Assembly: GCA_021776075.1 (NCBI GenBank)
Contig: JAJFGQ010000017.1
Coordinates: 1-52,996, forward strand
Length of the DNA: 52,996 nucleotides
From: Alphaproteobacteria bacterium
GTDB taxonomy: Bacteria; Pseudomonadota; Alphaproteobacteria; Micavibrionales; Micavibrionaceae
Direction of reading: 5' to 3'
Within the stretch, counting starts at the first letter, position 1; the number at the start of each line of letters is the position of its first letter. Below the pieces are notes generated by a model. It was not told the origin of the DNA. It did no database searches and saw only the letters and a program-made list of their open reading frames with translations. Shown piece by piece: positions 8,228 to 52,500 of the stretch. Both the position numbers and the translations under genes were made by a program.

Positions 8228-8313
8228 GTTGGTGCGGTCGAGAAGAGTCGAACTTCCACGGGATTACTCCCACAGCGACCTCAACGCTGCGCGTCTACCA
8301 TTCCGCCACGACC
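8228..8313 (-). tRNA. tRNA-Leu (anticodon GAG)
   Basis: The reverse complement folds as a cloverleaf. 7-bp acceptor GCGGTCG/CGACCGC. Anticodon stem CAGCG/CGCTG with loop TTGAGGT. Long variable arm GGGAGTAATCCC. T-loop TTCGACT. Encoded CCA. Confidence 0.8.
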
Positions 8314-8401
8314 GCACTGCCGTGTGGATAGCAAATATAGCATATTTCTGCAAGCAGGAAGAAGCTTGCAATGCAATATCTTCGATACTATTTTTAAGCT
8401 C

Positions 8402-33933: not shown

Positions 33934-33967
33934 GATCTTTTACCTCTTCATATATCGTGAAGTGAAA

Positions 33968-35164: not shown

Positions 35165-35174
35165 GGTTTTTCTC

Positions 35175-37085
35175 CTACTTCATGTTCGGTTTGTTATTAT
35201 CAGGGTTCTGTTTTTTCGACTGTTCGTATTTACGGCGCTCTTCATCCTGAAGGGTTTTCCAGTCGGGTTTGCCTACGGCAGTTTTGGGAAGTTCCTCTTC
35301 CACGAATTCAAAATGTTTCGGTGTTTCCATCCGGTTGATATGCGGTTCCAGAAACTTTTTCAGTTCTGCGATGTCCGGCGGATTTGTAACACCTGCTTTG
35401 AAGCGAATAAAGGCTTTGGCGGATTCTCCCGAGCGGTCATCCGGTACGCTGACGACAACACATTCGGCAATGTCGGGATGGTTGGCAATCGCGTTTTCAA
35501 CTTGTGCAGGATAGACGTTAAAGCCGTTGATAATCACAAGGCGTTTCTTGCGGTCGACAATGTGCAGATACATATCATCATCCAGATAGCCTAAATCGCC
35601 GGTATGGAGCCAGCCGTTTTTAATCATCTCGCCTGTTGCTTCCGGTTGGTTGTAATAGCCTTTCATGACCTGCGGGCCCTGCACGCAGATTTCACCAAGT
35701 TCGCCAATCTTCATGATCTTTTCGGGATTGTCGGGGTCGGCGATTTTAACAGTCGTTTTCGGATAGGGCATTCCGACGGATTCAGGCTTGTTTTTACCGT
35801 GGGGCGGATTACAGGAGATTACAGGAGATGACTCCGTCATACCGTAACCCTGTTTGACAACACCTTCTGTCCCAACGGCATCTTCAAAATCTTTATGGAC
35901 CCCGGAGGGTAGGGCAGCGCCGCCTGAAATGACGGCTTTTAAACTGGAGAGGTCTGCTTTTTTTGCATTTTTATTTTCAGCAATACCCTGTTGCTGCTTG
36001 GGAACAGACGGGAAGAAGGTCGGTTTCTTTTTATTGATGGCGTCAATTGTCATCTCCATATCACGGGGATTGGGGAGGATAATGATTTCCGTTCCTGTTT
36101 TCATGGCCGTCAGCATGGCAACCGTCATGCCGAAAACATGGAAATAAGGAATAGCGGCCAGTGTGCGTTCTTTGCCGTTTCTGACATAGGAACTGTCTTT
36201 CGGCTTGTTAGGGCTTTCGCCATAGAACTCAGCCGTCTGGAATAGATTGGCCACCAGATTAAAATGGGTCAGCATTGCCCCTTTGGGGATGCCTGTTGTG
36301 CCGCCCGTATATTGGAGGACGGCAACTTCATCCGGATCAATGGCAACGGAATGAAAATAACCGTTATTGTCGATGATATCCCTGAAATCGACGATGGCCG
36401 GTTTGTCGTCCTTTAAAGGGCGGATTTCCTGGGTTTCCTGATTGCTGCAAGGCCATTTACAGGCTTTGCGCATCATAAGATTCCCCATCTGCCAGTTCGT
36501 CATGTCCGGTTTGTCGGCTTTGGCTTTATCATAAGTCTCTTTAATCCGGTAGGCTTTGGCTTTCATATAGGGCAGGGCATCGCCCATCTGGCACTTGATA
36601 ATATGTTTGAGAGCGCCGCTTTTTTGCAGTGTTTCGGCTTTGTCAAAGAAGTCATGCTTGTCAATCGTGACCATGATTTCAGTGCCACTATCTTTAATCT
36701 GCGCCGCCAGCTCCTCAGTCGTGTAAAGCGGGCTGTAATTGACGACAGTTGCGCCAACGCGCAAGGCTGCAAAAAACATGACGGGATAAAAGGTCGTGTT
36801 GGGCATATACAGGCCAACCTTCGTTCCCTTGCCAACGCCCATATCCTGTAGCCCCGCAGCGGCGCGGCTGATCAGGTTCCCAATTTCCGTGTAGGTGAAC
36901 TTTTTACCGAGAAAGTCGACGCAGGGCCTGCTGCCGAACTTCACAATGGATTCGTCGATAACACGGACGAGGTCCACATGCGGGATGCCGATATCCCACT
37001 GTATACCTTCCGGGTAGTGCGCGGGTAACGACTCACCATTCGCAAGAGCCGGTTTTTTTTCTTTTTGTTTTTCGTCTTTCTGCAT
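35175..37085 (-). CDS. fadD: long-chain fatty acid--CoA ligase
   Basis: 636 aa. AMP-binding motifs (YTGGTTGIPKGAMLTH, GYGMTE) and an insertion typical of FadD-type enzymes. Confidence 0.9.
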   Translation of the reverse strand: MQKDEKQKEKKPALANGESLPAHYPEGIQWDIGIPHVDLVRVIDESIVKFGSRPCVDFLGKKFTYTEIGNLISRAAAGLQDMGVGKGTKVGLYMPNTTFYPVMFFAALRVGATVVNYSPLYTTEELAAQIKDSGTEIMVTIDKHDFFDKAETLQKSGALKHIIKCQMGDALPYMKAKAYRIKETYDKAKADKPDMTNWQMGNLMMRKACKWPCSNQETQEIRPLKDDKPAIVDFRDIIDNNGYFHSVAIDPDEVAVLQYTGGTTGIPKGAMLTHFNLVANLFQTAEFYGESPNKPKDSSYVRNGKERTLAAIPYFHVFGMTVAMLTAMKTGTEIIILPNPRDMEMTIDAINKKKPTFFPSVPKQQQGIAENKNAKKADLSSLKAVISGGAALPSGVHKDFEDAVGTEGVVKQGYGMTESSPVISCNPPHGKNKPESVGMPYPKTTVKIADPDNPEKIMKIGELGEICVQGPQVMKGYYNQPEATGEMIKNGWLHTGDLGYLDDDMYLHIVDRKKRLVIINGFNVYPAQVENAIANHPDIAECVVVSVPDDRSGESAKAFIRFKAGVTNPPDIAELKKFLEPHINRMETPKHFEFVEEELPKTAVGKPDWKTLQDEERRKYEQSKKQNPDNNKPNMK

Positions 37086-37213
37086 GACCGTGTTCAGGAC
37101 GCAAGGACGCGCCTTTCTCCCCCATTTATTATTAACGAGCCAAATGTTATGGCAACGATTACTTTGCGGTTATTATGTTAGATACCAACAGGAAAGTAAT
37201 AAGTAAAGTGACT

Positions 37214-37234
37214 TTGTGTGCTGCGCGCGCACAA
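37214..37234. promoter_or_regulatory. 21-bp palindrome TTGTGTGC-N5-GCGCACAA upstream of fadD; candidate operator
   Basis: Inverted repeat with 7/8 matching half-sites, ~130 bp upstream of the fadD start in an AT-rich promoter region. Confidence 0.3.
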
Positions 37235-37455
37235 TGCTTTATGTATATATTTTGTTTTCTTAAGTTTTTCTTGAGATATGACAAGGACGTAAATATAGAA
37301 AATAAAAAAATACGTTAAAATGTTCTTGGAATATATTCCTATTTATGCTATGGTTTAAAAATCAACGGGAGCTGTGCGCCAAAATTCAAAAGGGCGAACG
37401 GCTTTTTTTTATGCATAAATTTTTTCCCAAACAAAACAAAAAAGGACAATAAGTT

Positions 37456-37737
37456 ATGGCACTTTTCAGTGGTTTTTCTGATTTCCTGAAGAAATCGGTT
37501 GGCAATAATATGGAGAATAAACCGGAGGACGTCCGCACGGCCAAACGAAATCTGAGCGGGCTTAGGTTGATGGATGAGGATGACGCGGCGGAGAACGATA
37601 GGCGTATGGAGACGGAAGGAAAGGCAAAACAGTTTCGTGTCTTTGGTTCCAGATTGCAAAAAGTAAAAGGGTTTATTGAAATTGATAATGGAAAACTTAA
37701 AAGCTCTAATTTCGAATGGGAAGACATTAACCAGTGA
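37456..37737 (+). CDS. possible small protein (93 aa) at the edge of an AT-rich island
   Basis: ATG with AAAGGA SD 6 nt upstream. Charged, no recognisable motif. Confidence 0.3.
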   Translation: MALFSGFSDFLKKSVGNNMENKPEDVRTAKRNLSGLRLMDEDDAAENDRRMETEGKAKQFRVFGSRLQKVKGFIEIDNGKLKSSNFEWEDINQ

Positions 37738-37767
37738 GCGTTGGCAAGATTTAAATAAAAGTTTTTC

Positions 37768-38492
37768 ATGGAAACACTTGATGATATTTTGGCCCGTTTA
37801 TTGTTATTGGCTGGCCATTATAATGGCAGGCGGTTTTTCCCCCTCTCTGATGGATATGGAAATTATGATGTTACCAAGGGAATAAAAGCTTATTCTGATA
37901 TCTTTGTTTATCTGATTGCTCTTTATTTTCTTTATTTTTATGTCATCAGAAGTTGGAAAAGAGCAGCTCAATTCGGAGGGCATTTTATTGCAATCTGGCT
38001 ACTAATGCCCATTTTTAAAAATCTGGCCATTTTCTATTTGACGTTCAGTCGCGCATGTTCATTTGATCTGGACTGTGCGTGGAGTGACTTCTTTTTTATG
38101 GTTTCGAAAGAAGGATTCTTCTAACAAAACTGTCTCTAATTTTGATCCCAAGGACGATCCCAAACTTGATAAACTGATACTGGATACAGCAGTAAGCGAC
38201 CGGCTTTTGGATAACCGGTTGCGTGTGGATGTCCGCGATCTGCGCCGGAAATTCCCCGGTTTTGATTCCGCACCGGTGGAGGCACAGCAGGCGCTTTTGG
38301 ATATGGCGTTCAATCTTGGGTAATACACAGTTTCAGGAAGCAAACTGGCCCACCCTTTTTGCGGCTGTGAAAGCAGGAGACTGGGTAACGGCGGCGCGGG
38401 AGTCGCAGCGTAAAGATGTTGGTGCTGATAGAAATCAGAGAATCCGTAAATTGTTTGAAGACGCGCATAAGCGGCAGCAACAGCAACCCTGA
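37768..38492 (+). pseudogene. T4-type (GH24) lysozyme remnant, split across three reading frames
   Basis: Frame of 38063-38323 ends ...SAPVEAQQALLDMAFNLG*. Frame of 38223-38492 continues NTQFQEANWPTLFAAVKAGDWVTAARESQRKDVGADRNQRIRKLFEDA. Together these align to the T4 lysozyme C-terminal ~110 residues ([64 protein letters not shown]). A single extra T after GGG at ~38313 breaks the frame. The upstream frame at 37768 (DGYGNYDVTKGIKAYS) weakly resembles the N-terminal TIGIGHLLTKSPSL region, but the catalytic part is degraded. Confidence 0.5.
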
Positions 38493-38500
38493 TAGAGCTA

Positions 38501-39016
38501 TTAACGGGTATAGGTGCTAAGATTATGGAATAAATTGTTTCTGTTATACTCACATACGTTGTTGGTTTCGTTTTGAAGCCGCTCCCAATGGATATGGGCT
38601 GGTAAATACCAGTCTTTTTGGAATAGATCGCAATGTTGGTAGGTTACCCATACAGTATTATCAGGTCTTGTATGTGGTGGGTCAATAATGTACCGGACAT
38701 ATTTCCAGCGTGGATTAATCAGGGTAGAATTTGGATCTGTGTCTTCTTCCCGCACGATTGTATAGACATAGCCATTTTCGATATGGAACACCTTATAATA
38801 CTGTATCATGACAAGCTCTTTGGTGTCATTATTTACGCGGTGTTCAATAATGCCGTCAGGTCGTACGTCTATGCCAATAATACCGGAGGCCCTGCCGCGA
38901 GGTCTCCAGTACCCCAGAAACTCTTCGGGCATAGGCAAATAGCCGTTATCCTGCGGCGGCGTCGTGACGCAGGCGGTGAGGGATAACAGCAATATGACAG
39001 TGAGTAGTAATCTCAT
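38501..39016 (-). CDS. lipoprotein, hypothetical
   Basis: MRLLLTVILLLSLTAC lipobox. 171 aa, Trp/Tyr-rich, no known motif. Confidence 0.6.
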   Translation of the reverse strand: MRLLLTVILLLSLTACVTTPPQDNGYLPMPEEFLGYWRPRGRASGIIGIDVRPDGIIEHRVNNDTKELVMIQYYKVFHIENGYVYTIVREEDTDPNSTLINPRWKYVRYIIDPPHTRPDNTVWVTYQHCDLFQKDWYLPAHIHWERLQNETNNVCEYNRNNLFHNLSTYTR

Positions 39017-39077
39017 GCGCTGAGCCTATCCATAGACTGCGGCGATATCAAGGAGAACACCAAGATCTTTATTGCTT

Positions 39078-40013
39078 TTAGGCCGGGTAAAGCATGGAGA
39101 GATATTTTTCACCGCGGTCGCAAAGCAGGGTTAGGACGGTTTTGATCTCCGGGTTATCCTGCTTTATCTTTTTGGCTGCCCAGAAATTACCGCCGGAGCT
39201 GGGGCCGACGAACAGGCCGCGCTCGGATGTCAGGCGTTTGGATTCTTCAATGGCCATGTTGCTGTCTACGCTGATCACGCCGTCTACTTCATCCTTGTGC
39301 CGTCCGTATATGGTGGGCACAAAACCATCCGAAATGCCTTCAATCTTGTGATCGGCAACCATGCAGCATTCGATGGTGCGTGATTCCGTCGGCTCCATGG
39401 CGAATGCTTTGACGTCCGGGTTATGCCACTGACGCAGGGCTTGTGTAATGCCGATCAGAGTACCGCCGGTGCCAACGCCTTGCACGATGGCGTCTATCTT
39501 CAGACCCTCCGGTAACTGGGCGATAATTTCACGGCCCAGCCATTCCCGGTTTTCTTCTACATTCCATTCATTATCAAACTGGGCGGGGCAGTAGAACCCG
39601 TCTTCCTGTCCCATTTTAATGGCCGCAGCACGCGCTTCATTGACCTGAAAATGACCGACGAAACGGATTTCTGCGCCAAAACCCCGTGAGATTTGCGTGC
39701 GTTCACTGGTGTAACCTTCCGGGATCATCACGATCATCTTATAGCCCTTGACGGCGGCAATCATGCTCATGGCATTGCCGGTATTGCCGCTGGTGGACTC
39801 AACGATTGTGTCGCCGGGTTTCAGGAGTCCTTCTTCCTCGGCCTTTTCGATCATGTAGTTCGCCATACGGGCCTTGATCGAACCGGACGGGTTCAGAAAT
39901 TCGGCCTTGGCATAAATGCCGTCACCCATATCAAGAAGCGGCGTATTACCGATACTGTCCAGAATAGTTTTCGGCGTACCGTCTGTCGTATGTTTTATCA
40001 CAGGCTCACCCAT
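39078..40013 (-). CDS. cysK: cysteine synthase family PLP-dependent enzyme
   Basis: 311 aa. PLP-lysine region NPSGSIKAR. Glycine-rich PLP phosphate loop GVGTGGT. Confidence 0.8.
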   Translation of the reverse strand: MGEPVIKHTTDGTPKTILDSIGNTPLLDMGDGIYAKAEFLNPSGSIKARMANYMIEKAEEEGLLKPGDTIVESTSGNTGNAMSMIAAVKGYKMIVMIPEGYTSERTQISRGFGAEIRFVGHFQVNEARAAAIKMGQEDGFYCPAQFDNEWNVEENREWLGREIIAQLPEGLKIDAIVQGVGTGGTLIGITQALRQWHNPDVKAFAMEPTESRTIECCMVADHKIEGISDGFVPTIYGRHKDEVDGVISVDSNMAIEESKRLTSERGLFVGPSSGGNFWAAKKIKQDNPEIKTVLTLLCDRGEKYLSMLYPA

Positions 40014-40019
40014 AGATTT

Positions 40020-42596
40020 TTACTCCAGAGTAAAACGGCGTTTCTTCTCTTTCTTGATGTCGGACTGGTCATTGGCAGGAACAGGTGTTCCTCTGCCCAG
40101 ATCAATCGGGAAGTCATCAACTTTTACGGCTTCTATCCGGCTGGCATCGGCTTTATGGATCAGAGCCTCTTCGTCTTCCGTGATAATGCCTTTGATTATC
40201 GCTTCTTTCATGATGTCTTTCATGTCCCTGGAAATAATTTTTTCCTTTTCGGAGACGTTTTGTTTGCGGGCAAGACGCCGCGCCGCGTTGATTTTGTCTT
40301 CAACAGGTTCGGCGGCCAAAGCATCGTTAAAGGCTCCGGTTATCTCAGCGACATGATCGTTAGCAGCCGTGGGCATGAAGATTCCTTCGGCAAGCCTGTC
40401 CCGCGCATCATTTTTATTCAGGAGGATTTCGGCCACTTTTTTCTCCAGCCTGTCAGAAGGCGGATGGAGGCGTTTGCCTGACATAAAGGGCACGGCAGAC
40501 AGAGGTGAGGTTAGAAGGCTCATGCCTATATTTGCCGCTTTCATTATGGCCCCTGCCACGGGCATCATTAAAGGAAGAGGGATTTTCAGCAAGGGCATAA
40601 CTCCCTTAAATGCTTTACCAAGTTTCAATGTTAGCGTGTTTTTAGCGACTTTCAAAAATTGCGTTTCCTTAATCGCTTTAGGAATATTTGTGAAAGTTTT
40701 TTGTACAGCTTTCCCTACGCTCTTAACGCTGAATTCCGGACGGGGATAGTTTCTGATCAATTCACTCATCGCTGTTTCGGCTTGCGACAAGGCGTGTTGA
40801 CAGGCCCAATGCATCAGAGGCTCATCTTCTTTTTTGCAACCTTGCACCTCGAAGTGCCGCAAAGTAGCGGAGGCCAGATAAAGGTGGCTCATGACATCGC
40901 CTAGTCGTGCCGTAACCCTTTCAGCTGTTTTCATTTTAGCGCCCAGAAGCAGATACGTTGTGTCAGCCATGGTCGCAAGACCGGAACTAAGACGATCAAT
41001 TTGTTGGTAATAGCGTTTACCCGGTCCTTTAACCGGCGTTTTACCAAAATGGCCATCGGTTACACCCATCCAGAGGGTGCGCACGCCATTATTCATGCTC
41101 TGCCGGACATGTTCTGCCATCAAGGTCGTGAATTTCTCTTTGTCTTTGGCTATAGCCTCCTTGGTTTCACCCAGTAAGAAGTTATGAGAGCGCATGGATG
41201 CCTGATTGAAAATAATCATATTTCGGGTCAGAATGTTAGCACCTTCGACGGTAATACCGATGGGGACGCCTTGATACATACCGGCAAGGTAGTTTCTTGG
41301 CCCCAGACTGAGGCCCTTTCCGCCGTGAATATCCATGGCGTCGTTGACGACATCGCGCATAGCCTCGGTCAGGTGATATTTAACGACAGCCGATAAAACA
41401 CTGGGTTTTTTACCCTGATCGACCATTTGTGCTGTAGCTGTACGGGCCGCATCCATCATATAGGTCGTTCCTGCCATACGGGCCAGCGGAGAATGAATAC
41501 CTTCAAAAGCACTTAAAGGCACTTTGAATTGTCGGCGTACACGGCTGTACATGCCCGTGACCCAGCTTGCGAATTTCGCACCGCCCGTGGCCTGTGCGGG
41601 AAGAGAAATAGAGCGCCCGACGGCCAGACATTCCATCAACATACCCCAGCCTTTACCGGCTTTTTCTTCACCACCGATAATATTTTCAATAGGGATCACG
41701 ACATCTTTGCCTTTCACAAGGCCGTTATGAAAGGGATGGCCCAGAGGGTTATGCCGCCGTCCGGTTTCTATGCCGGGCGTGTCATGGGAAACAAGCGCAA
41801 CGGTAATGCCTTCCTTGCCCTTTTTCAGCAGGTCGTCAGGGTCCTTCAACTGGAAAGCGACACCCAGAAGGGTCGCAACAGAGGACAGTGTGATATAGCG
41901 CTTATCTATATTCATACGAATTTTTATTTTTCCGTCTTCATCCTTGAAGACCGTGCCGCTTGATGTCATGCCGCCGGCATCAGAGCCTGCATTTGGTTCG
42001 GTCAGAGCAAAGCAGGGGATTTCACGGCCATTGGCAAGGCGCGGTAAATAATGGTGCTTTTGCTCGTCTGTGCCGTAACGCTCCACAAGTTCAGCCGGGC
42101 CGAGGGAGTTGGGAACCATGGCCGTAACAGCCGCCGTGACGCTACGGCTAGAAAGCTTTTGGACAACAGCCGAGTGAGCGAGGGCAGAAAACCCGAGGCC
42201 CTCATGTTCTTTCGGAATAATCATGCCGAAAAATTTCTGGTCTTTCATAAATTGCCAAACGTCTTCGGGAAGGTCTGCTTCTTTGCTGTTTCTGACTTCC
42301 CAATCGTTAACCATGGCGCATAGTTCTTCAACCGGACCGTCAAGGAACGCCTGTTCTTCGGCGCTCAGTTGCGGAGCAGGGAGTATCTTCTTGTTCAGGA
42401 GGTTGTTCCAATCCGGCTTACCGTTCAGGAGGTCCGCTTCAAACCCGGCGTCGCCTGCTTCTAGTGCTGCGGATTCTGTTTCCGAGATTCTTGTCCTGCT
42501 GACCTGACTATAGATAACATCTCTCAGAAGTCTGACTGGTGTGTATCTGACGACAGCGTCGTAAAAAATACGAGTGAGCTTTTCGTGCGTGGACAT
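40020..42596 (-). CDS. fadE: large acyl-CoA dehydrogenase (FadE-type, with C-terminal DUF1974-like extension)
   Basis: 858 aa. ACAD N-terminal, middle and C-terminal domains plus a ~250-aa C-terminal extension, as in gammaproteobacterial FadE. Confidence 0.88.
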   Translation of the reverse strand: MSTHEKLTRIFYDAVVRYTPVRLLRDVIYSQVSRTRISETESAALEAGDAGFEADLLNGKPDWNNLLNKKILPAPQLSAEEQAFLDGPVEELCAMVNDWEVRNSKEADLPEDVWQFMKDQKFFGMIIPKEHEGLGFSALAHSAVVQKLSSRSVTAAVTAMVPNSLGPAELVERYGTDEQKHHYLPRLANGREIPCFALTEPNAGSDAGGMTSSGTVFKDEDGKIKIRMNIDKRYITLSSVATLLGVAFQLKDPDDLLKKGKEGITVALVSHDTPGIETGRRHNPLGHPFHNGLVKGKDVVIPIENIIGGEEKAGKGWGMLMECLAVGRSISLPAQATGGAKFASWVTGMYSRVRRQFKVPLSAFEGIHSPLARMAGTTYMMDAARTATAQMVDQGKKPSVLSAVVKYHLTEAMRDVVNDAMDIHGGKGLSLGPRNYLAGMYQGVPIGITVEGANILTRNMIIFNQASMRSHNFLLGETKEAIAKDKEKFTTLMAEHVRQSMNNGVRTLWMGVTDGHFGKTPVKGPGKRYYQQIDRLSSGLATMADTTYLLLGAKMKTAERVTARLGDVMSHLYLASATLRHFEVQGCKKEDEPLMHWACQHALSQAETAMSELIRNYPRPEFSVKSVGKAVQKTFTNIPKAIKETQFLKVAKNTLTLKLGKAFKGVMPLLKIPLPLMMPVAGAIMKAANIGMSLLTSPLSAVPFMSGKRLHPPSDRLEKKVAEILLNKNDARDRLAEGIFMPTAANDHVAEITGAFNDALAAEPVEDKINAARRLARKQNVSEKEKIISRDMKDIMKEAIIKGIITEDEEALIHKADASRIEAVKVDDFPIDLGRGTPVPANDQSDIKKEKKRRFTLE

Positions 42597-43328: not shown

Positions 43329-45218
43329 TTACTTTTTTGTATCGGAAAAACTGGCGGGATTAAATTTGCTGCCAATAATAGCGGCGGCTCCACTCAGACC
43401 AGAACTTTCTCCGCCCATAACAAAAGTAGCGGGCAGTTTCAAACCGGTCAGAAGCTGAGGCTTTTCCTTGATGGCATCTATAATCAGTTCCAGAGCGCGG
43501 AGATTGGCAACTTTGTCCTGACCCAGTACATCGGCCTGTGCTTTCTGTCCGTCAGCGACTTGCGTCAGGTAGGATTTCTCAGCCTCTCCTTCGTTGTTCC
43601 GTCGGATTTTGAACTGTTCGGAAACCTGCACACCGATTTCAGCTTTTACGAGTTCTTTTTGCTGGTCGGCGGTTGCCCGTGACTTTTCGGATAGTATGCG
43701 TTCGTCCTGCGCCAGTTTTTCCTGTCTATAGGCTTTAGAAAGCTGTTGGGCCAGTTGTTCCCGGCGGCGTGATACGAGAAGCTCCGGCGGGATGGATGGT
43801 TCACCGATTTTGACTTCCAGAATAGTGATGCCTGCTTTTTCGCCTTCGCTTTTAATCGCTTTTTCAAAAGCCGTTTCCATGTAGGAACGGAAATCTTGAA
43901 AATCGAGGGCGCGGGCAGCTCTGACGGCAAGAACAGGCTTACCCTGTTCATCCTTTAATATTTTGCCGTTTTCATCGAGCAGGGGAGCCAGATAGGTGCC
44001 GCCACCGATATTGCGAACAATGGAACGGATGGCCGGCGTTACAATACGGTCTTCGACTTCCCGGACGCTGCCAACGGCGGCAACAACAGCAGCCGCATCT
44101 TCCGGGTTTACCTGAACCAGAATACGAAGCTCAACGGGCACATCCCAGCCCTCTACTTTCACAAAAATAGCATGATCGGCATGTTGGGATGGTGAAAATT
44201 CAACGGGTTCGCAAGTCCGTTGTTGGGAAAAGCTGCCATCATCACCGAGCGTCAGGTCAATCCGGCATTTGTCAAAGCCGCCTTTATAAGTCCAGCGTTG
44301 GGCGCGAGTTGGAATTTGTGTGACTTCATAAACATCAGGGTTGAAGAAATAAGCACCCGGTTCAAAGATGTCTTTCCAGACACCCTTGCAGCCGGAGTAA
44401 ACCAGGACAGCTTTTAAGTGACCTTGTTCGACCTGAACGCCGCCTTTCTGACAGGCCGGGTTCCAGCCTTCATCCAGATTGGACTTCACGACACCGACAT
44501 AACCGGTCGGAATTTCCGTGATAATAGTAGGGCGTCCACCCACGGACATGGGGCGTTTACCCCATCTGTCATAGAGATAGCTTTTGCCGCTTTCATCCGT
44601 AATACGGACATTAAATAGGAAGAGGTTTAGACGGTGGATGCCGGGTTTCAGGACGGAGGATTGAAGACCTTTATAGCCGTTAATCCTCTGTGAATCGAGA
44701 AAGGCATCGGCGTCGAATAAAGAGTCTTCGTCGCCGCCCTTTGGAGCGCCAAAGGCCAGCGATGTGCCGGGGAGAGGTGGGGCAATAACGGCATCTTCGG
44801 GCAGAGTGCGCCCATCAAGAGCCAGAACTTCTCCGAAATGGCCGGGTGGGATTTCCACGGCGGGCAGAATAGTAACCTCGCCCCAGATACGGATAAACCA
44901 GTCCAGATGCCAGCCCGGTCCATAAATCTTGGACATCGGGCCGTTTTCTCCCGCTGTCGCTATAATTTGTCCACCGTCCAGATTGGATCCGCCGAATTTT
45001 TTTGCTATATGACCCGTTTCATATTTATCGACATAAAAGAGGCTGGTCGAAAGAATAGACCAGACTAGAAAGAGCCAGCCCACGAGATAGAATGAGGTGG
45101 ATATTACAGGGTTTTTGGCCATGTGTATAAATCTGGAAGTGTCATTATTGCTTTTTCTCATCTTGGCAAAAGCAAATAATATCAAGGCATTAAAGATGAT
45201 TGTTAGGACGACTTCCAT
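43329..45218 (-). CDS. SPFH/band-7 domain membrane protein with large N-terminal extension
   Basis: 629 aa with two N-terminal TM helices. The C-terminal half is SPFH-like (a FNPDVYEV...IDLTLGDDG...ILEVKIGEPSIPPEL-type region, then coiled coil with EQLAQQ/KELVKAE repeats). GGAG SD. Confidence 0.65.
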   Translation of the reverse strand: MEVVLTIIFNALILFAFAKMRKSNNDTSRFIHMAKNPVISTSFYLVGWLFLVWSILSTSLFYVDKYETGHIAKKFGGSNLDGGQIIATAGENGPMSKIYGPGWHLDWFIRIWGEVTILPAVEIPPGHFGEVLALDGRTLPEDAVIAPPLPGTSLAFGAPKGGDEDSLFDADAFLDSQRINGYKGLQSSVLKPGIHRLNLFLFNVRITDESGKSYLYDRWGKRPMSVGGRPTIITEIPTGYVGVVKSNLDEGWNPACQKGGVQVEQGHLKAVLVYSGCKGVWKDIFEPGAYFFNPDVYEVTQIPTRAQRWTYKGGFDKCRIDLTLGDDGSFSQQRTCEPVEFSPSQHADHAIFVKVEGWDVPVELRILVQVNPEDAAAVVAAVGSVREVEDRIVTPAIRSIVRNIGGGTYLAPLLDENGKILKDEQGKPVLAVRAARALDFQDFRSYMETAFEKAIKSEGEKAGITILEVKIGEPSIPPELLVSRRREQLAQQLSKAYRQEKLAQDERILSEKSRATADQQKELVKAEIGVQVSEQFKIRRNNEGEAEKSYLTQVADGQKAQADVLGQDKVANLRALELIIDAIKEKPQLLTGLKLPATFVMGGESSGLSGAAAIIGSKFNPASFSDTKK

Positions 45219-45417: not shown

Positions 45418-47178
45418 GTGGCAGGTCCGCTAAAGAAGTTGCGTGATATTTTTAGTCTTCAGTCAGCGATTGATGAGGGCTTTAACTATAAGCATAAAGC
45501 GCCAGTAATATCGCCGGAGAGAAAAAAAGAGCTGATGGAGTCTGCTGCTTTGACAACGCCACGGAGTAATTTTCGTGCGGTTGTCGGGGTTTTGGAGCCC
45601 TATATAAAGAAATCCAGTGTAAAGGAAAAGCTTCTGGTGACGACTTTTCTGGCGGGTACTTTATATCTCAATCATTTTTCAGTTGATATGATGGGTGCTT
45701 TTGGTGACTGGATCGGTGGGCTTGTGAACCATGTGGCACATTTGTGGAACGTTGTCGTTGAAAACAGACCAGATATGATTGCGGACATGATCGGGAATTA
45801 TCCTGCGTTACAGGATTCTTTGACGGCTGATCCTATGTTGAATAAGTTACTTTTGGCCTATCCCGATGAAACAGCCGTGTTTCGAGATCCTCAATATCAA
45901 GCGTTATTGCAAGAGTTAGAGACGTTAGATATGGATAGCCCAAGGTTTAAGGCAATTAAAGAGTTTCAAAGTGTTTTGCAGCAGAGGTTGCCTGTAGAGG
46001 AATGGTTTAAGGCTTTTCCCGGGTTACAAGAAGGCGCGGGCTTTAAAGAAAAGTTTTCTACAGGTACGGAAAATATTTTAAACCAGCTTACCGGACTTAA
46101 GGATACTTTGGGTCTCCAACTTCAGAAGTTGCCTGAAATCATAAAAACCTTGCAGACGATGTTGATGACGTCCGGCGGTGACTTTTTGTATAATGTGGGA
46201 AACACTCTGAGCACAGCATTTAATAGTGTGGCTGAAAAAGGGACTTTGTTTAACGCTGACTTAAAGGCAGCATTAAGCAAAATGTGGAACAGCAATGATA
46301 TGGCCACAATTGCTTTGAAATTCACAGGGGCAGCCATTGCGGCGTACAAGATGGCACAGTACGTTGTTTTACGGTGGCGTAGTTGGACAACGGGATATTA
46401 TGACGGCAAATACAAAACCAGCAAAACTTTTGCCCGTATAAAAAATATGTTCAATAACATTGATAACCCGGGACAGCGTATTCAGGAAGATCCCGAAAAA
46501 TTTACAGCAGCGAGTGTTTCATTGCTCACAGGGGTTACAACCGCAATATTTACGCTCCAGAAGTTTTCCGGAAAGCTCTGGAATATGGGGCCTGTGCAGG
46601 GTGTTGATGGCGGGTTTTTCATGATTGGAGCCGCGTATGCCGCAGTGCTTTTGGCTGTGACTGGCGGTGTTGGTTATAAGTTGGCCGAGATTTATCGTAA
46701 TAAACAACGTGTTGAGGCCAATTTAAGGCGTGCGACAGATAATGTGCATAATAATGCCGAACAAATAGCCTTAACGGATAGTGCTGAAATAGAAAAAGAT
46801 ATTGTCCAGAAGCGTGTGACGCCTGTGATGGAAAATGCGTGGAGAGAAGTAGGAACCCAAGTCAAAATGACGATTGTTGATTCCACAGTGGGTAATGTGT
46901 CCATTCCCCTTCCTTATCTTGTCGCTTCGTTTGCTGCCGTGGCCAGCGGAACAGCATCGTTCGGTATGGTTCAATCTTTGAATTATGCTTTTAACCGTGT
47001 GAATAGCTCCCTTAGCTTTATCGTGAACCGCTTTGACCAGATTTCAAACTGGATAGCGACTGGATCCCGTATGTATACGTTTGATAAAGCGATGGATGCT
47101 TCCTTGTATATTGAGGAAGAAAAACGGCAAGCCGGTTTGAATGCTGTGATTCCACAACAAGCACCGAAAATGTCGTAG
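45418..47178 (+). CDS. SbmA/BacA/ABCD-family ABC transporter permease (transmembrane domain only), with expanded N-terminal half
   Basis: GTG start with strong SD. VVLRWRSWTTGYYDG and NPGQRIQEDPEKFTAASVSLL match the SbmA VFRWRTAMNEYY...EGAAQRVQEDTMRF block and the ABCD NPDQ motif. KQRVEANLRR matches the SbmA KNQRVEAAYRKEL. Six to eight hydrophobic helices. A ~190-aa mainly helical segment (aa ~110-300) has no counterpart in 406-aa SbmA. Confidence 0.75.
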   Translation: MAGPLKKLRDIFSLQSAIDEGFNYKHKAPVISPERKKELMESAALTTPRSNFRAVVGVLEPYIKKSSVKEKLLVTTFLAGTLYLNHFSVDMMGAFGDWIGGLVNHVAHLWNVVVENRPDMIADMIGNYPALQDSLTADPMLNKLLLAYPDETAVFRDPQYQALLQELETLDMDSPRFKAIKEFQSVLQQRLPVEEWFKAFPGLQEGAGFKEKFSTGTENILNQLTGLKDTLGLQLQKLPEIIKTLQTMLMTSGGDFLYNVGNTLSTAFNSVAEKGTLFNADLKAALSKMWNSNDMATIALKFTGAAIAAYKMAQYVVLRWRSWTTGYYDGKYKTSKTFARIKNMFNNIDNPGQRIQEDPEKFTAASVSLLTGVTTAIFTLQKFSGKLWNMGPVQGVDGGFFMIGAAYAAVLLAVTGGVGYKLAEIYRNKQRVEANLRRATDNVHNNAEQIALTDSAEIEKDIVQKRVTPVMENAWREVGTQVKMTIVDSTVGNVSIPLPYLVASFAAVASGTASFGMVQSLNYAFNRVNSSLSFIVNRFDQISNWIATGSRMYTFDKAMDASLYIEEEKRQAGLNAVIPQQAPKMS

Positions 47179-47193
47179 GGAGAGGATTGGAGA

Positions 47194-48783
47194 ATGACAG
47201 ACGTAAAATCAGATTTTGACCAGTCTCAAAAACAACAGGAAGAAGTTCCTTTCATCGTTGTGACTAAGCATAAGGACGGTACAGAGGAGATTCATATCCA
47301 TGATTTAGTTGTAAGAGTTCCCGGAGATAATGGCCGCGTGCTTGTACAGGACGTGAATTTAGCTCTAAAGCCGGGTGATAAAGTTGCTTTAATGGGAGAG
47401 TCAGGATCGGGTAAAACGACTGTGGCTAAAGCGATCCTTAATAACTGGGACCATGGCTCCGGGTTAATTGTGATGCCCTCCGGCCTGACAATCGTAAGTA
47501 TGTCGCAGCAGGCCTATTTTCCTGACACGACACTACGCGCGATTATGAATTTGAAACCTGAAGAAAAATGCGTATTTGAGGATAAACAACTAACGGAAGT
47601 TTTACAAAAAGTCGGTTTGGAGCAGCTTGTTCAACATATTCCGGGGCAGCAGGTTAAGATTTTGATGGATGATCTTTTGGAGCAGACTCAGAAAATTATG
47701 GAATCCTATGCCGAACAGGAAATATCGGATGATGATTTCCTCTCGGTCAAAAATGATATTTTATCCCGTGTTGCGCCTTTGGTGAAAGAGCAATTTGAGG
47801 TTGTTCAATTTATACCGCAGGAACAAAAAGATTATTTCAAGGAAAAGCTTTCTGCGCAGTTGACCGGGGCGCTTAAAAAGCCTTTAGCACAGCCCAAAGT
47901 AAAAGAATTAACGAATGCTATTCTTGATGATATCGATATAAAATTGGCGCAGCCTTTATATACTCAGTTAGCAGCAACCCTTCCGGAGATGGCGCACAGA
48001 AAACGAGGAAAAATTATTCCCTACACGCCGGCAAAGGCTAAATTTCTTGCTAATAGTTTTGAAGAAAAACTGCGAAAATATTTGACGTCTTATATGAAGA
48101 ATGAAGATACGGATGATATTTATAGGGATATCAGAATTAATGACAAACAAGCCGATTACATTTGTAAGGCTGTCAGTGATAAATTGAGGGAAGAGATGAA
48201 ACCTTACATCAGTGGGGGAACTCTTACGCAGACTTTTAATGCTGTTACATGGGCCGTTACTCTTCCCGCTGCGTTGTTATGGATAGCTTCAAGTGCGATG
48301 AGAGACCTTATCTTTACCCGGAAGATAACGCCTTCTGAAGTGACGCGGACGACCAGTCTTCCCCCCGTGCTTCTTCGGAGAGCCTCGAATATGGCGAAAG
48401 ACCTTGTCCAGAATACAATGCATTTCATGGAGCGTCAGCTCGTAAAGGGCACGGCATTCACAACACAGCTTTCGGGCGGACAAAAGCAGAGACTGATGAT
48501 TGCTATCGGGCTGCTACATGATGCTGATTTATACGTGCTTGATGAGCCTACGGCAGGACTGGATCCAGCAAGTAAGGAAAATATTTATCGTGAAACGATG
48601 GAGGCTGTTCCAAAAGGTGGGATTGTTCTGTGTATTACTCATGATGAAAGCATCATAAAATATCATACACACCTTGCTGTTCTGGAAGATCAAACGATCA
48701 AAATGAAAAAAATTAATCCAGATGCTTATCCTTCTGTAAAGCAACCTTGCGTAGATCACATATGTCCGAATTGCACGCCCTGA
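47194..48783 (+). CDS. ABCD-type ABC transporter ATP-binding protein with ~260-aa insertion between Q-loop and signature motif
   Basis: Walker A GESGSGKTT (aa 68-76). Q-loop SMSQQ (aa ~104). Signature LSGGQKQR (aa 426-433). Walker B LYVLDEPTAGLD. H-loop CITHD. ABCD-family hallmark SIIKYHTHLAVLEDQ (ABCD1 has SLWKYHTHLLQFDGEG). Q-loop to signature spacing is ~320 aa versus ~60 in ABCD1. The insert is charged and helical, with a 22-aa hydrophobic segment FNAVTWAVTLPAALLWIASSAM (aa 347-369). Confidence 0.8.
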   Translation: MTDVKSDFDQSQKQQEEVPFIVVTKHKDGTEEIHIHDLVVRVPGDNGRVLVQDVNLALKPGDKVALMGESGSGKTTVAKAILNNWDHGSGLIVMPSGLTIVSMSQQAYFPDTTLRAIMNLKPEEKCVFEDKQLTEVLQKVGLEQLVQHIPGQQVKILMDDLLEQTQKIMESYAEQEISDDDFLSVKNDILSRVAPLVKEQFEVVQFIPQEQKDYFKEKLSAQLTGALKKPLAQPKVKELTNAILDDIDIKLAQPLYTQLAATLPEMAHRKRGKIIPYTPAKAKFLANSFEEKLRKYLTSYMKNEDTDDIYRDIRINDKQADYICKAVSDKLREEMKPYISGGTLTQTFNAVTWAVTLPAALLWIASSAMRDLIFTRKITPSEVTRTTSLPPVLLRRASNMAKDLVQNTMHFMERQLVKGTAFTTQLSGGQKQRLMIAIGLLHDADLYVLDEPTAGLDPASKENIYRETMEAVPKGGIVLCITHDESIIKYHTHLAVLEDQTIKMKKINPDAYPSVKQPCVDHICPNCTP

Positions 48784-50892: not shown

Positions 50893-52500
50893 ATGACTCA
50901 AATTAACAGCACTGTCAAAGCAGAAGATAAGGCCTTCAAAGCCAACCGGCTTCATATGGAAGGGCTTGTCGCTGACCTGAAGGATAAACTCACGACCATT
51001 GAGATGGGCGGCGGAGAGAAGGCACGGGCGCGTCATACAGGGCGCGGTAAGCTTTTGCCGCGTGAGCGGATTAACCGTTTGCTTGATCCCGGTTCACCGT
51101 TTTTAGAACTTTCAGCATTGGCTGCGCATGATGTGTACAGCGATAACGTGCCTGCTGCCGGTATTATTACGGGTGTTGGCCGCGTATCGGGGCAGGAATG
51201 CGTAATCGTCTGCAATGATGCGACGGTGAAGGGCGGTACCTATTATCCGTTAACCGTGAAAAAGCATTTACGGGCGCAGGAAATTGCCGAACAGAATAAC
51301 CTCCCTTGTGTTTATCTGGTGGATAGTGGTGGCGCAAATCTTCCTAATCAGGATGAAGTTTTTCCCGACCGGGATCATTTCGGCCGTATCTTTTATAATC
51401 AGGCGAATATGTCCGCAAAAGCTATTCCGCAGATTGCTGTTGTGATGGGGTCTTGTACGGCGGGCGGTGCTTACGTTCCCGCGATGAGCGATGAAAGCAT
51501 TATTGTGAAAGAACAAGGCACGATTTTTCTTGCCGGACCGCCTTTGGTGAAGGCGGCAACGGGTGAAGAAGTGAGCGCCGAGGATCTTGGCGGTGGGGAT
51601 GTTCATACGCGGGTTTCCGGTGTGGCGGATCATTTGGCCGATAATGACGACCATGCGCTGGAACTGGCGCGGAAATCTGTTTCCCATTTAAACCGCCGTA
51701 AGATGGGAGCCTTGAATTTTCAGGAACCGAAAGAGCCTTTGTACGATCCTGCAGAAATTTACGGGATTATTCCACCTGACCTGAAGACTCAGTATGATGT
51801 GCGCGAGGTGATTGCGCGCCTTGTTGACGGCAGTGAATTCGACGAATTCAAGGCGCGTTACGGCACGACTCTTGTGACAGGTTTTGCCCATATTATGGGG
51901 ATGCCGGTCGGGATTGTGGCCAATAACGGTGTGTTGTTTTCCGAGAGCGCGCTTAAGGGGACGCATTTTATCGAGCTGTGTAATCAGCGCGGTATTCCGC
52001 TTGTATTTTTGCAGAATATTACGGGTTTCATGGTGGGCAAAAAATATGAAAGCGGCGGCATTGCTAAAGACGGGGCGAAGATGGTAACGGCTGTTTCCTG
52101 TGCCAAGGTCCCGAAATTTACGGTGATTATCGGTGGCTCGTTCGGGGCCGGGAATTACGGCATGTGCGGACGGGCCTTTAATCCGCGCTTTCTGTGGATG
52201 TGGCCGAATGCCCGGATTTCCGTGATGGGCGGGGAGCAGGCCGCCGGCGTTCTGGCAACTGTGACACGCGCGAAAATGGAACGTGACGGTCAAAAATGGT
52301 CGGCAAAAGAAGAGGCCGCTTTTAAAGCGCCTATTCAGGAAACTTACGAGAAAGAGGGGCATCCGTATTATGCTTCGGCGCGCCTGTGGGATGATGGCGT
52401 GATAGACCCGGTGGATACGCGGAAAATACTGGGGCTGGCCATGTCGGCTTCGCTCAATGCCCCGATTGAGGACACGACTTACGGCGTGTTCAGGATGTGA
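50893..52500 (+). CDS. acyl-CoA carboxylase carboxyltransferase beta subunit (methylcrotonyl-CoA carboxylase beta-like)
   Basis: 535 aa. Two carboxyltransferase subdomains. Length and N-terminal region ([24 protein letters not shown]) are typical of MccB/PccB. Confidence 0.88.

Follow-up and report, generated by a model that had tools for sequence, protein, structure and literature searches.

The window (the whole 52,996-nt stretch of alphaproteobacterial DNA that was analysed) carries on its forward strand a gene for the membrane subunit (TMD) of an ABC transporter, followed by a gene for its ATPase subunit (NBD), in which a large helical domain interrupts the nucleotide-binding cassette (Table 1). 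The 529-aa ATPase reading frame reported in the preliminary description exists as described, and an identical protein is present in NCBI (P0001). Because no terminator was seen between the two genes (in a promoter/terminator scan with results at chance level) and the NBD gene has its own Shine-Dalgarno-like sequence, the pair constitutes a two-gene operon. A second ABC half that could act as a heterodimer partner was not found among the ten other large ORFs of the window that were scanned.

Table 1 Coordinates of the transporter genes and their features in the window.
Feature	Position (nt)	Strand	Length, evidence or remark
Membrane-subunit (TMD) gene	45418..47178	+	586 aa, GTG start; partner of the NBD gene
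N-terminal extension of the TMD protein, aa 1-275	45418..46242	+	Family-specific; outside the Pfam TMD match
Transmembrane domain ABC_membrane_2 / SbmA_BacA, aa 276-560	46243..47097	+	Pfam, NCBIfam, hydrophobic peaks; type IV-like
Intergenic spacer	47179..47193	+	15 nt; Shine-Dalgarno-like GGAGAGGATTGGAGA ahead of the NBD ATG
NBD (ATPase) gene	47194..48783	+	529 aa + stop; ORF list, Pfam, NCBIfam
NBD N-terminal half, aa 20-153	47251..47652	+	Beta-subdomain, Walker A, Q-loop, helical subdomain, invariant VQHIPGQQ end
Inserted all-alpha domain, aa 154-415	47653..48438	+	Alignment to insert-less relatives
Acidic loop N303-E-D-T-D-D...R311.IR.N316	48100..48141	+	Most conserved insert element, between helices 279-301 and 317-338
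Hydrophobic stretch, aa 347-369, FNAVTWAVTLPAALLWIASSAMR	48232..48300	+	Conserved FNAV.WP motif + start of the private block
Private lineage-specific block, aa ~363-399 (~37 aa)	48280..48390	+	Hypervariable loop of the insert
NBD C-terminal half, aa 416-505	48439..48708	+	Signature, Walker B/D-loop, H-loop, KYHTHL
NBD C-terminal tail	48709..48780	+	Poor conservation; alignment columns 590-610, pLDDT <50

A domain inserted ahead of the ABC signature

Every catalytic motif of the NBD is intact, including Walker A (GESGSGKT, aa 68–75), the Q-loop (Q105), the signature (LSGGQ, aa 426–430), the Walker B/D-loop segment (LYVLDEPTAGLD, aa 444–458), and the H-loop (H483), which is followed by KYHTHL (aa 489–494). 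Across the family, Walker A, Q-loop, LSGGQ, Walker B with its catalytic Glu, D-loop, and H-loop are invariant or nearly so, and mean pairwise identity is 0.51 in the N-terminal and 0.52 in the C-terminal half of the core. A C-x2-H-x-C-x2-C / CxxC motif in the tail is shared with the closest relatives only. The Pfam profile ABC_tran (PF00005) is well above its cut-off (E = 5.1e-21; 76 bits vs 25), with the match split in two: aa 52–152 correspond to profile positions 2–104 and the remainder lies at aa ~400–500. Thus, the protein does not form a contiguous ~200–220-aa cassette with the canonical Q-loop-to-signature spacing of ~55–65 aa. From Q105 to S427 we measured 322 aa, in agreement with the ~320 reported previously, compared to 58 and 54 aa in the two closest insert-less relatives; the distance from Walker A to the signature is 358 aa, against a median of 108 aa in 106 other ABC ATPases. 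When aa 154–408 are removed, the NBD aligns uninterrupted to normal NBDs (211 residues vs 211 of ABCB19).

When the protein is aligned to insert-less relatives, the indel falls between ...GLEQLVQHIPGQQ and VKGTAFTTQLSGGQ, and the insert therefore comprises aa 154 to ~415. The C-terminal end given in the preliminary description stands, whereas the start at aa 140 does not, making the domain slightly narrower. Relative to the exporter X-loop, the insertion has an ambiguous register, with either flank alignable to the FI..LP.GYDT element. The insert (262 aa in the window, ~220–370 aa across the family) occupies the short linker that leads from the last helix of the helical subdomain to the signature and ends at most 17 residues before LSGGQ.

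A profile of the insert matched only 38 clusters among 1.84e9 representatives of 50% identity clusters, in all cases at the same NBD position or in fragments of such an NBD. The nearest insert-less relatives, P0139 (a fused protein) and the ordinary pair of L020, are of Rv1819c/BclA/YddA type. Identity in the insert is 0.32, between that of the NBD core (0.51) and that of the tails (~0.2), and an alignment of the window NBD with 13 other sequences (A1) has invariant motifs within it; the insert is under purifying selection. The NBD with a ~260-residue helical insert is a rare, real architectural variant.

The insert is charged (28% DEKR, with 13 prolines) and helical, as had been described. 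AlphaFold (AF2) models it as a multi-helix domain of about nine helices, 17–34 residues each, without a single long antiparallel arm, and gives good confidence both in the context of the NBD and in isolation (pLDDT 80 and 79, pTM 0.67) from shallow alignments of 14 and 11 sequences. The acidic loop, a non-helical and confidently modelled element (pLDDT blocks 83–88), is marked by conservation, with N303, D305, T306, D308, R311, and Q319 invariant in A1; the motif is found in most family members, not all, and on the basis of alignment and model it is a candidate functional or contact site. Searches with the insert alone identified no relative: Pfam gave no consistent domain match in 11 insert-bearing members, the best PDB match of the insert profile was apolipoprotein A-I (E = 0.026 over 82 columns, treated as compositional), and Foldseek returned only weak matches (E > 0.5, TM < 0.3). 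No sequence or fold likeness to known domains was detected in these searches. Comparison of the insert with itself, for internal repeats, and with the N-terminal extension of the TMD protein yielded nothing beyond a 19-column motif at 9% probability. The insert appears to represent a new all-alpha fold family without a Pfam entry.

Membrane partner and relation to known transporters

The upstream ORF matches ABC_membrane_2 (PF06472, E = 8.5e-29) and SbmA_BacA (PF05992, E = 1.2e-14) over aa 276–560, together with sub-threshold NCBIfam matches to SbmA, PRK12369, and TIGR00954. Its N-terminal extension is mostly helical and soluble-looking, with no peak of at least 1.2 in the 19-residue Kyte-Doolittle average (KD19) before aa 362, and is kept at 248–297 residues across L001–L004 and P0121–P0138. 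The TMD family is as small as that of the NBD, with 18 full-length relatives followed by a cliff; the nearest outside relative has E = 5e-15 and 23% identity. A homolog of 473–667 aa adjoins the insert-bearing NBD upstream in L001–L004, L016–L019, L022, L026, and L027, and at all loci whose flanks can be read the two genes lie side by side. The window and most loci encode them separately, and fusion is seen only in P0166 and P0167, in which TMD, NBD, and insert form one chain of 874 and 876 aa with a short N-terminal extension only. The insert is confined to this NBD site, and wherever context is readable the NBD is paired with or fused to this type of TMD.

Because the upstream partner is an ABC_membrane_2/SbmA_BacA TMD, and because fused TMD-NBD forms with the same insert exist, the NBD is a transporter-type ATPase, a subunit of a BacA/Rv1819c-like ABC transporter. 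This agrees with the transporter-type motifs that had been recognized earlier. The narrower assignment to the ABCD/BacA clade is suggested by the partner TMD, by KYHTHL, and by the nearest insert-less relatives; the KYHTHL-type motif after the H-loop and an LW motif after Walker A are shared with ABCD1. The core itself points elsewhere, since a single-sequence PDB search placed it among generic exporter-type NBDs, with hits led by ABCB, ABCC, and CFTR NBD2 rather than by Rv1819c or ABCD. With family profiles, Rv1819c (6tqe) was among the best single-NBD PDB matches to the N-terminal half, and ABCD1 (9wfg) was among the PDB matches.

Comparisons with known systems reveal both shared and distinct features. 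Rv1819c, BclA, and YddA have TMDs of the same families (PF06472/PF05992) and are ATP-driven and presumably dimeric, as the present system would be. They differ in having the canonical ~55–60 aa between Q-loop and signature, where the family described here has an inserted domain of 220–370 aa, and in lacking the ~275-aa TMD extension; in addition, they are single TMD-NBD chains (PMC13316013), whereas the subunits here are mostly separate genes. The literature groups this TMD type with the NBD-bearing transporters YddA, BclA, and Rv1819c, whose imported substrates are peptides, cobalamin, and hydrophilic compounds (PMC13316013, PMC12003926, PMC10960864). Uptake of bleomycin-type compounds also counts among the traits of this group. 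SbmA/BacA proper, the proton-driven peptide importers (SLiPTs), have a related TMD fold of the same Pfam family and work without an NBD and without coupling helices (PMC13316013); in contrast, a dedicated, motif-intact NBD gene with its own Shine-Dalgarno sequence lies here 15 nt downstream. ABCD1-3 and PXA share the ABC_membrane_2 TMD, but are fused, eukaryotic proteins with NBDs of canonical length, and the peroxisomal ABCD model TIGR00954 scores below threshold on both subunits (63.9 bits for the NBD and 51.7 bits for the TMD vs a cut-off of 918.9). We found in the literature no described family or paper with a transporter NBD carrying such an insert, consistent with the preliminary description, and the insert-bearing family was not found in surveys of SbmA/BacA/BclA.

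Possible role of the inserted domain

Few known protein modules are as uniform as the NBDs of ABC transporters, and in these the segment that precedes the signature (the X-loop region of exporters) plays a central part in closing the ATP site and in NBD-TMD coupling. Accessory domains in ABC proteins include the ABC-F arm in NBD1, the eEF3 chromodomain in ABC2, the UvrA insertions, and the regulatory insertion (RI) of CFTR, whereas the C-terminal domains of MalK, MetN, and ModC regulate transport, showing that domains grafted onto an NBD can provide partner binding or regulation. The inserted examples either occur in soluble ABC proteins or, in the case of the CFTR RI, are short and disordered, and those of the transporter NBDs (MalK, MetN, ModC) are C-terminal appendages, not insertions by the signature. 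No likeness of the insert to any of these accessory domains (ABC-F, eEF3, UvrA, CFTR, MalK/MetN/ModC) was detected by sequence or fold. The presence of a folded, conserved domain of 220–370 residues in a bona fide transporter with intact motifs shows that the pre-signature site tolerates a large graft, and the insert-bearing NBD offers a natural system for studying how the signature region could receive signals. As the hosts are uncultured, the practical importance is limited at present.

We consider it probable, with appreciable room for other explanations, that the operon encodes a YddA/BclA/Rv1819c-type transporter in which the insert is a cytoplasmic regulatory or docking module near the signature. 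The separate membrane subunit and ATPase would assemble as a (TMD)2(NBD)2 homodimer that hydrolyses ATP normally, and the substrate, by homology to BacA/BclA/Rv1819c, is probably hydrophilic or peptide-like. The insert would be anchored at the X-loop/signature region, which is expected to move relative to the RecA core upon ATP binding and to face the intracellular loops of the TMD. This position suggests that it most likely serves as a regulatory or docking module, through which closure of the ATP site could be linked to a ligand, a partner protein, or the ~275-aa TMD extension. By analogy, it may be functionally comparable to the regulatory domains of MalK, MetN, and ModC, but inserted rather than C-terminal. 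The suggestion of a regulatory or dimerisation arm in the preliminary description may hold.

Considerably less probable is the idea that the insert serves as an NBD-NBD dimerisation or tethering domain, like the C-terminal domain of MalK, keeping the two separately encoded ATPase subunits joined throughout the transport cycle without ligand sensing. The fused P0166 and P0167 keep the insert even though they need tethering less, and an invariant acidic loop within 220–370 aa of conserved sequence exceeds what simple tethering needs.

A more specific version of the regulatory reading, which we regard as rather doubtful, is that insert and TMD extension together constitute a new cytoplasmic module below a BacA-like transporter, which would gate ATP-site closure directly via the signature/X-loop region when a metabolite or partner enzyme is sensed, with a recurrently adjacent POR/DUF6537 oxidoreductase or 4HBT protein as candidate partner. 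If true, it would represent a new insertion-based regulation, or a coupling to catabolism, of an ABC transporter in uncultured Alphaproteobacteria.

In favour of the main reading, a cytoplasmic regulatory or docking module, the conserved extension co-occurs with the insert; against it, P0166 and P0167 keep the insert with a short extension only. No sequence homology between insert and extension and no clean co-variation of their length or motifs was found; a correlation between the acidic NEDTDD loop and extension length was rejected, given that P0161 and P0163, which lack the motif, pair with TMDs of 654 and 667 aa. Recurrent neighbours of insert-bearing loci are genes for POR/DUF6537 (2-oxoacid:ferredoxin oxidoreductase), 4HBT (thioesterase), ACAD, HMG-CoA lyase, and MCCase. 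This neighbourhood is absent from the window, L001, and L003. A setting of amino-acid/2-oxoacid and acyl-CoA catabolism is compatible with nutrient uptake, and it may be synteny inherited within one lineage rather than a functional link.

It is unlikely that the insert is an amphipathic helical domain that binds ligands or lipids, such as acyl chains or acyl-CoA, or that captures or releases substrate on the cytoplasmic side. Several observations point in this direction: the best PDB match of the insert, apolipoprotein A-I, consists of Pro-punctuated amphipathic helices, the MP1 helical domain, which binds fatty acids, is among the weak Foldseek matches, the ABCD fatty-acyl-CoA transporters have TMDs of the ABC_membrane_2 family, and beta-oxidation/acyl-CoA genes lie near the insert-bearing NBD in the window and at several loci. 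All of these similarities are non-significant, however; AF2 packs the helices as a bundle, not as an open lipid-binding belt. Since alphaproteobacterial genomes are rich in acyl-CoA genes, their presence nearby is poor evidence.

The hydrophobic stretch had raised the idea of a re-entrant or transmembrane anchor that ties the NBD to the bilayer, which we now view as very improbable. The 23-residue run is present, but its KD19 peaks at 1.52 (aa 360), below the usual transmembrane threshold of 1.6, and AF2 confidence over it is only 53–65. Its hydrophobicity is largely due to the private block, which is gapped in 13/13 other A1 sequences and largely disordered in the model (pLDDT <50 for aa 374–388); in none of the 13 homologs does the most hydrophobic 19-residue window fall at this position. 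Most members show moderate hydrophobicity in the conserved FNAV.WP..L motif (KD19 up to 1.46), but with ~10–13 residues the conserved part is too short for a bilayer span. Across the inserts of the family KD19 reaches at most 1.53, and the insert has no transmembrane-grade segment.

There is similarly little chance that the insert is a coiled-coil arm like those of SMC/Rad50/RecN or PtuA/GajA/AriA, and the protein a DNA- or defence-related ATPase rather than a transporter subunit. In SMC/Rad50/RecN/RecF, GajA, PtuA, and AriA, the ABC cassette is likewise interrupted between Q-loop and signature, and partial or sub-threshold matches to Pfam SMC_N and AAA_21 and to PADLOC AriA and mad3 were obtained. 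The site proposed earlier as the SMC/Rad50 coiled-coil position is correct as to this interval, but here the insert follows an intact, canonical helical subdomain, which the long antiparallel coiled coils or dimerisation arms of those proteins replace. SMC_N reaches 31.6 bits against a cut-off of 40 and covers the generic ABC core only, and the PADLOC matches (mad3, mad8, AriA) are restricted to the halves of that core. The longest modelled helix has 31–34 residues, the insert is a bundle of short helices with 13 prolines, and a crude heptad score equals that of shuffled sequences (0.57 vs 0.60 ± 0.08; GCN4 control 0.72). Those proteins act on DNA or with nucleases, whereas the NBD described here always adjoins or is fused to a membrane domain, and there is no conserved nuclease neighbour (an HNH gene occurs in L016–L018 only).

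That the additional ~800 nt are a sequencing or assembly artefact or derive from a chimeric contig, as the unusual length and the slightly lower GC content at 46–48 kb (0.435 vs ~0.49) might suggest, is practically negligible, because the insert occurs with an uninterrupted frame and invariant motifs in the 38 clusters, which come from separate assemblies and different samples (NCBI, JGI, ENA, Logan), and no repeats flank it. The private 37-aa block is known from this one sequence alone, and no DNA repeats that would explain it were found. Just upstream of its position, different expansions of their own are found in P0002, P0003, and P0006.

Architecture of the ATPase and boundaries of the insert

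The reading frame at 47194-48783 (+) encodes a 529-aa ATPase, as the preliminary description had proposed, and Pfam ABC_tran (E=5e-21) matches it in two pieces: profile positions 2-104 correspond to aa 52-152 and the rest of the profile to aa ~400-500. The set of catalytic elements is complete (see table). The long gap between Q-loop and signature, previously put at ~320 residues against ~60, was borne out: Q105 and S427 are separated by 322 residues, compared to 58 and 54 in the two closest insert-less relatives found (in locus L020, an ordinary 264-aa NBD adjoining an SbmA_BacA TMD; and P0139, a fused TMD-NBD protein). Likewise, the distance from Walker A to the signature is 358 aa, whereas the median is 108 aa in 106 other ABC ATPases that the homology search returned. 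When aa 154-408 are removed, the ATPase aligns in one stretch to canonical NBDs (211 residues vs. 211 of ABCB19). Alignment of carriers with insert-less relatives mapped the indel between ...GLEQLVQHIPGQQ and VKGTAFTTQLSGGQ, therefore the insert spans aa 154 to ~415 (nt 47653-48438); its end was as first described, whereas its start, formerly aa ~140, was revised.

Features of the ATPase, its relatives and the gene neighbourhood (motifs of the insert are invariant in the family alignment)
Feature	Location	Remark
Walker A GESGSGKT	ATPase aa 68-75	
Q-loop Q105	ATPase aa 105	
Signature LSGGQ	ATPase aa 426-430	
Walker B/D-loop LYVLDEPTAGLD	ATPase	
H-loop H483	ATPase aa 483	
KYHTHL	ATPase aa 489-494	ABCD-like
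Insert helices	aa 152-170, 179-200, 209-227, 233-251, 253-269, 279-301, 317-338, 343-373, 391-414	AlphaFold2
VQHIPGQQ	insert entry point	invariant
QFxVVQ	insert	invariant
D..L..PL	insert	invariant
N-E-D-T-D-D..R.IR.N..Q	insert	invariant; acidic loop
FNAV.WP	insert	invariant
FM..Q.V.G	insert exit	invariant
SbmA_BacA TMD, 420 aa	L020:3775-5037	ordinary split pair before P0166
Canonical NBD, 264 aa	L020:5048-5842	same pair; closest insert-less relative found
POR/DUF6537 gene	L002:2616-6083; L004:1632-3947; L016:2021-5575; L019:1-2977; L020:9307-13110; L022:312-3815; L026:5027-8620; L027:1-1704	L017 like L016
FadB-like	window 31321-33933 (-)	
Thiolase	window 33968-35164 (-)	
Acyl-CoA ligase	window 35175-37085 (-)	
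FadE-type acyl-CoA dehydrogenase	window 40020-42596 (-)	
tRNA	window 8233-8315	one tRNA

Conservation and predicted structure of the insert

A search of 5.8 billion proteins found 13 full-length relatives of the ATPase (32-46 % identity), followed by a sharp drop from E=1e-68 to E=1e-26. All 13 carry the insert with its invariant motifs, and the HIPGQQ-LSGG spacing across the family ranges from 220 to 370 aa. Judged from mean pairwise identity (insert: 0.32; NBD core: 0.51-0.52; tails: ~0.2), the insert is under purifying selection. An exhaustive insert-only HMM search of 1.84 billion representatives returned only 38 proteins, each with the insert at the same NBD position or a fragment of such a protein. 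The family is represented in assemblies from NCBI, JGI, ENA, and Logan; within the species-representative genome set, its only hosts are MAGs labelled Alphaproteobacteria, uncultured Micavibrio or uncultured Rhodospirillales. Because this small family keeps the same insert across independent assemblies, a sequencing or assembly artefact, once considered as the source of the extra ~800 nt, is ruled out for the insert as a whole.

The AlphaFold2 model of the ATPase (14-sequence family alignment; mean pLDDT 80, pTM 0.67) places most of the insert at pLDDT 80-94 and gives nine helices, in line with the helical character first predicted. The acidic loop (aa 302-316) was modelled as structured and non-helical, and aa 374-390 as disordered. 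Modelled alone, the insert showed the same helices (pLDDT 79, pTM 0.67). The proposed SMC/Rad50/RecN-like or defence-ATPase coiled coil did not survive: helices of 17-34 residues, 13 prolines, and an a/d-heptad score, by a crude measure, of 0.57 vs. 0.60 +/- 0.08 for shuffled sequences (GCN4 zipper: 0.72) mark the modelled insert as a helical bundle rather than an SMC/Rad50-type antiparallel coiled coil. Moreover, Pfam SMC_N fell under its cut-off, matches to PADLOC defence models were confined to the generic ABC halves, and the ATPase belongs to neither the SMC/Rad50 nor the defence-ATPase families.

None of the searches identified the insert. Pfam searches of 11 family members gave no consistent match in it. 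The best PDB profile match was apolipoprotein A-I (E=0.026 only), which we read as Pro-punctuated amphipathic-helix composition; Foldseek of the insert against PDB yielded E-values of at least 0.54 and TM<0.25, and a structure search with the full-length model matched NBD cores only. The insert probably represents a new all-alpha domain family.

The hydrophobic segment noted in the preliminary description exists (nt 48232-48300, aa 347-369), but the membrane re-entrant idea attached to it gained no support. It starts with the conserved FNAV.WP and continues into a private block of ~37 aa (aa 363-399, including the disordered residues) that is absent from every homolog; the loop holds different expansions in other members. 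Its Kyte-Doolittle 19-residue average peaks at 1.52, the maximum of any family insert is 1.53, and the most hydrophobic 19-residue window is the Walker B strand in 8 of the 13 homologs and lies at this position in none. These values do not support a conserved element that spans or re-enters the membrane; the short FNAV.WP helix may have an interfacial role.

The C-terminal tail of the ATPase (48709-48780), modelled with low confidence, ends in C-V-D-H-I-C-P-N-C. Its CxxC(P) motif is common to the three closest relatives (P0002-P0004) and missing in the rest, and the tail may form a small metal- or redox-active knuckle.

Membrane partner, transporter class, and proposed role

The upstream ORF (45418-47178; 586 aa) matches Pfam ABC_membrane_2 (E=8.5e-29) and SbmA_BacA (E=1.2e-14), its membrane domain being preceded by a ~275-aa N-terminal extension. 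Its stop lies 15 nt before the ATPase gene, which is preceded by a GGAG-rich Shine-Dalgarno sequence; a terminator between the two genes was not found. In all related loci whose flanks could be read, the TMD gene is likewise followed directly by the NBD gene, and the TMD family is equally small and isolated (18 relatives; next match E=5e-15). P0166 and P0167 (874/876 aa) combine TMD, NBD, and insert in single chains, a Rosetta-stone fusion that links the NBD with the insert to a TMD of the ABC_membrane_2/SbmA_BacA type. The insert-bearing ATPase is a transporter subunit.

The two window ORFs share a reading frame, with only a TAG stop and four codons between them (47176-47193). The related loci L001 and L003 share this arrangement, whereas L002 and L004 do not. 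Taken with the natural fusions, it suggests recent gene fission or fusion, or possibly stop-codon read-through. In L020 (3775-8625), P0166 (6001-8625) is directly preceded by an ordinary split pair; these could be tandem paralogs or make up a heterodimeric system. The SbmA_BacA-family TMD homologs P0127 and P0172 (MCD8525785.1, MCD8496874.1) are named ‘bacilysin biosynthesis protein BacA’ in NCBI, which looks like an annotation error via the shared gene name BacA.

TMDs of this type are assigned in the literature to the YddA/BclA/Rv1819c group, type IV transporters that bear an NBD and are related to the SbmA/BacA importers, which lack one (PMC13316013, PMC12003926). The window transporter works like this type and is best filed beside the group; however, it is remote in sequence, its TMD and NBD are not a single polypeptide, and the insert makes its NBD non-canonical. 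The former assignment of the NBD motifs to the ABCD/BacA clade was upheld in part: KYHTHL, the TMD partner, and the nearest relatives fit, but the insert-deleted NBD core ranks ABCB, ABCC, and CFTR NBD2 first in a PDB sequence search. Rv1819c and a plant ABCD1 were among the best single-NBD matches of the N-terminal half when the family profile was used.

The insert branches off directly behind the final helix of the helical subdomain and rejoins the chain at most 17 residues ahead of LSGGQ. The segment just before the signature forms the X-loop in type IV exporters; it is located between the NBD dimer interface and the TMD intracellular loops, and shifts upon ATP binding. In the HMMER alignment, the exporter FI..LP.GYDT element pairs with the post-insert HFMERQLVKGTAF and the QVGERG X-loop is missing, while the pre-insert LVQHIPGQQ resembles the same element; the exact register of the insertion relative to the X-loop is ambiguous. 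A folded insert anchored near the signature would be in a good position to sense ATP-site closure or modulate it, or alternatively to dock something beside the transmission interface, with the conserved, apparently cytoplasmic extension of the membrane subunit as candidate partner. We infer a putative function, most likely as a cytoplasmic regulatory or docking module of a BacA-like ABC transporter; NBD tethering and ligand or lipid binding are the rival roles.

No homology between insert and TMD extension was found beyond a 19-residue G.LS..FN[AS]V motif, and a test of motif and length co-variation failed. This motif, G-x-L-[ST]-x-x-[FY]-N-[AS]-[VA], occurs as NVGNTLSTAFNSVAEKGTL (TMD aa 259-277, window 46192-46248) and SGGTLTQTFNAVTWAVTL (NBD aa 339-357, window 48208-48264); hhalign gave 19 columns, 42 % identity, and a probability of only 9 %.

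Accessory domains on NBDs include the ABC-F arm, the eEF3 chromodomain, UvrA insertions, CFTR RI, and the C-terminal domains of MalK/MetN/ModC. No transporter NBD with a large folded domain inserted beside the signature motif was found in the databases or literature searched. The insert-bearing NBD is rare and mechanistically intriguing, without the SMC-like or membrane-embedded character that had drawn initial interest.

Gene neighbourhood and substrate hints

BacA, BclA, and Rv1819c move peptides or other hydrophilic compounds (PMC10960864, PMC13316013), and by homology the window transporter may do the same. A large POR/DUF6537 oxidoreductase gene (indolepyruvate:ferredoxin-oxidoreductase-like, ~1150-1270 aa) lies a few genes from the TMD+NBD cassette in eight independent loci, including those of the most divergent family members, and is absent from the window, L001, and L003; this adjacency could reflect either deep synteny or a link in function. 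Other recurrent neighbours are genes for 4HBT thioesterases, acyl-CoA dehydrogenase, HMG-CoA lyase, and methylcrotonyl-CoA carboxylase, and in L004, L022, and L027 the cassette has genes of leucine catabolism (ACAD, HMG-CoA lyase, MCCase alpha) on its flanks. In the window, a beta-oxidation cluster (31321-42596, -) lies upstream, and downstream (50893-52500, +) is what we take, from reading its sequence, to be a carboxyltransferase resembling the MCCase beta subunit. Such a neighbourhood would fit a transporter that takes up nutrients for the catabolism of amino acids and acyl-CoA; inherited synteny is an equally possible explanation.

In a single lineage (L016:10291-10884; also L017, L018), an HNH endonuclease gene is located two genes downstream of the cassette; it was not accepted as a defence-system partner because it is not conserved outside that lineage. 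Divergent from the TMD gene, window 43329-45218 (-) encodes an unusually long SPFH/Band 7 protein (629 aa; Pfam match at aa 272-498 only) with an N-terminal hydrophobic region; such a gene was not seen beside the cassette in the other loci examined. No Pfam match was obtained for the window ORFs 12149-13186 (-) and 29285-30385 (-) (345 and 366 aa), and DUF3592 was the sole match for 16149-17786 (+; 545 aa). GC content over the cassette (46001-48000) is 0.435, compared to ~0.49 in the rest of the contig, which carries ordinary chromosomal housekeeping genes (SecD, SerRS, malic enzyme-PTA, MgtE, a GidA-family protein, FtsH).
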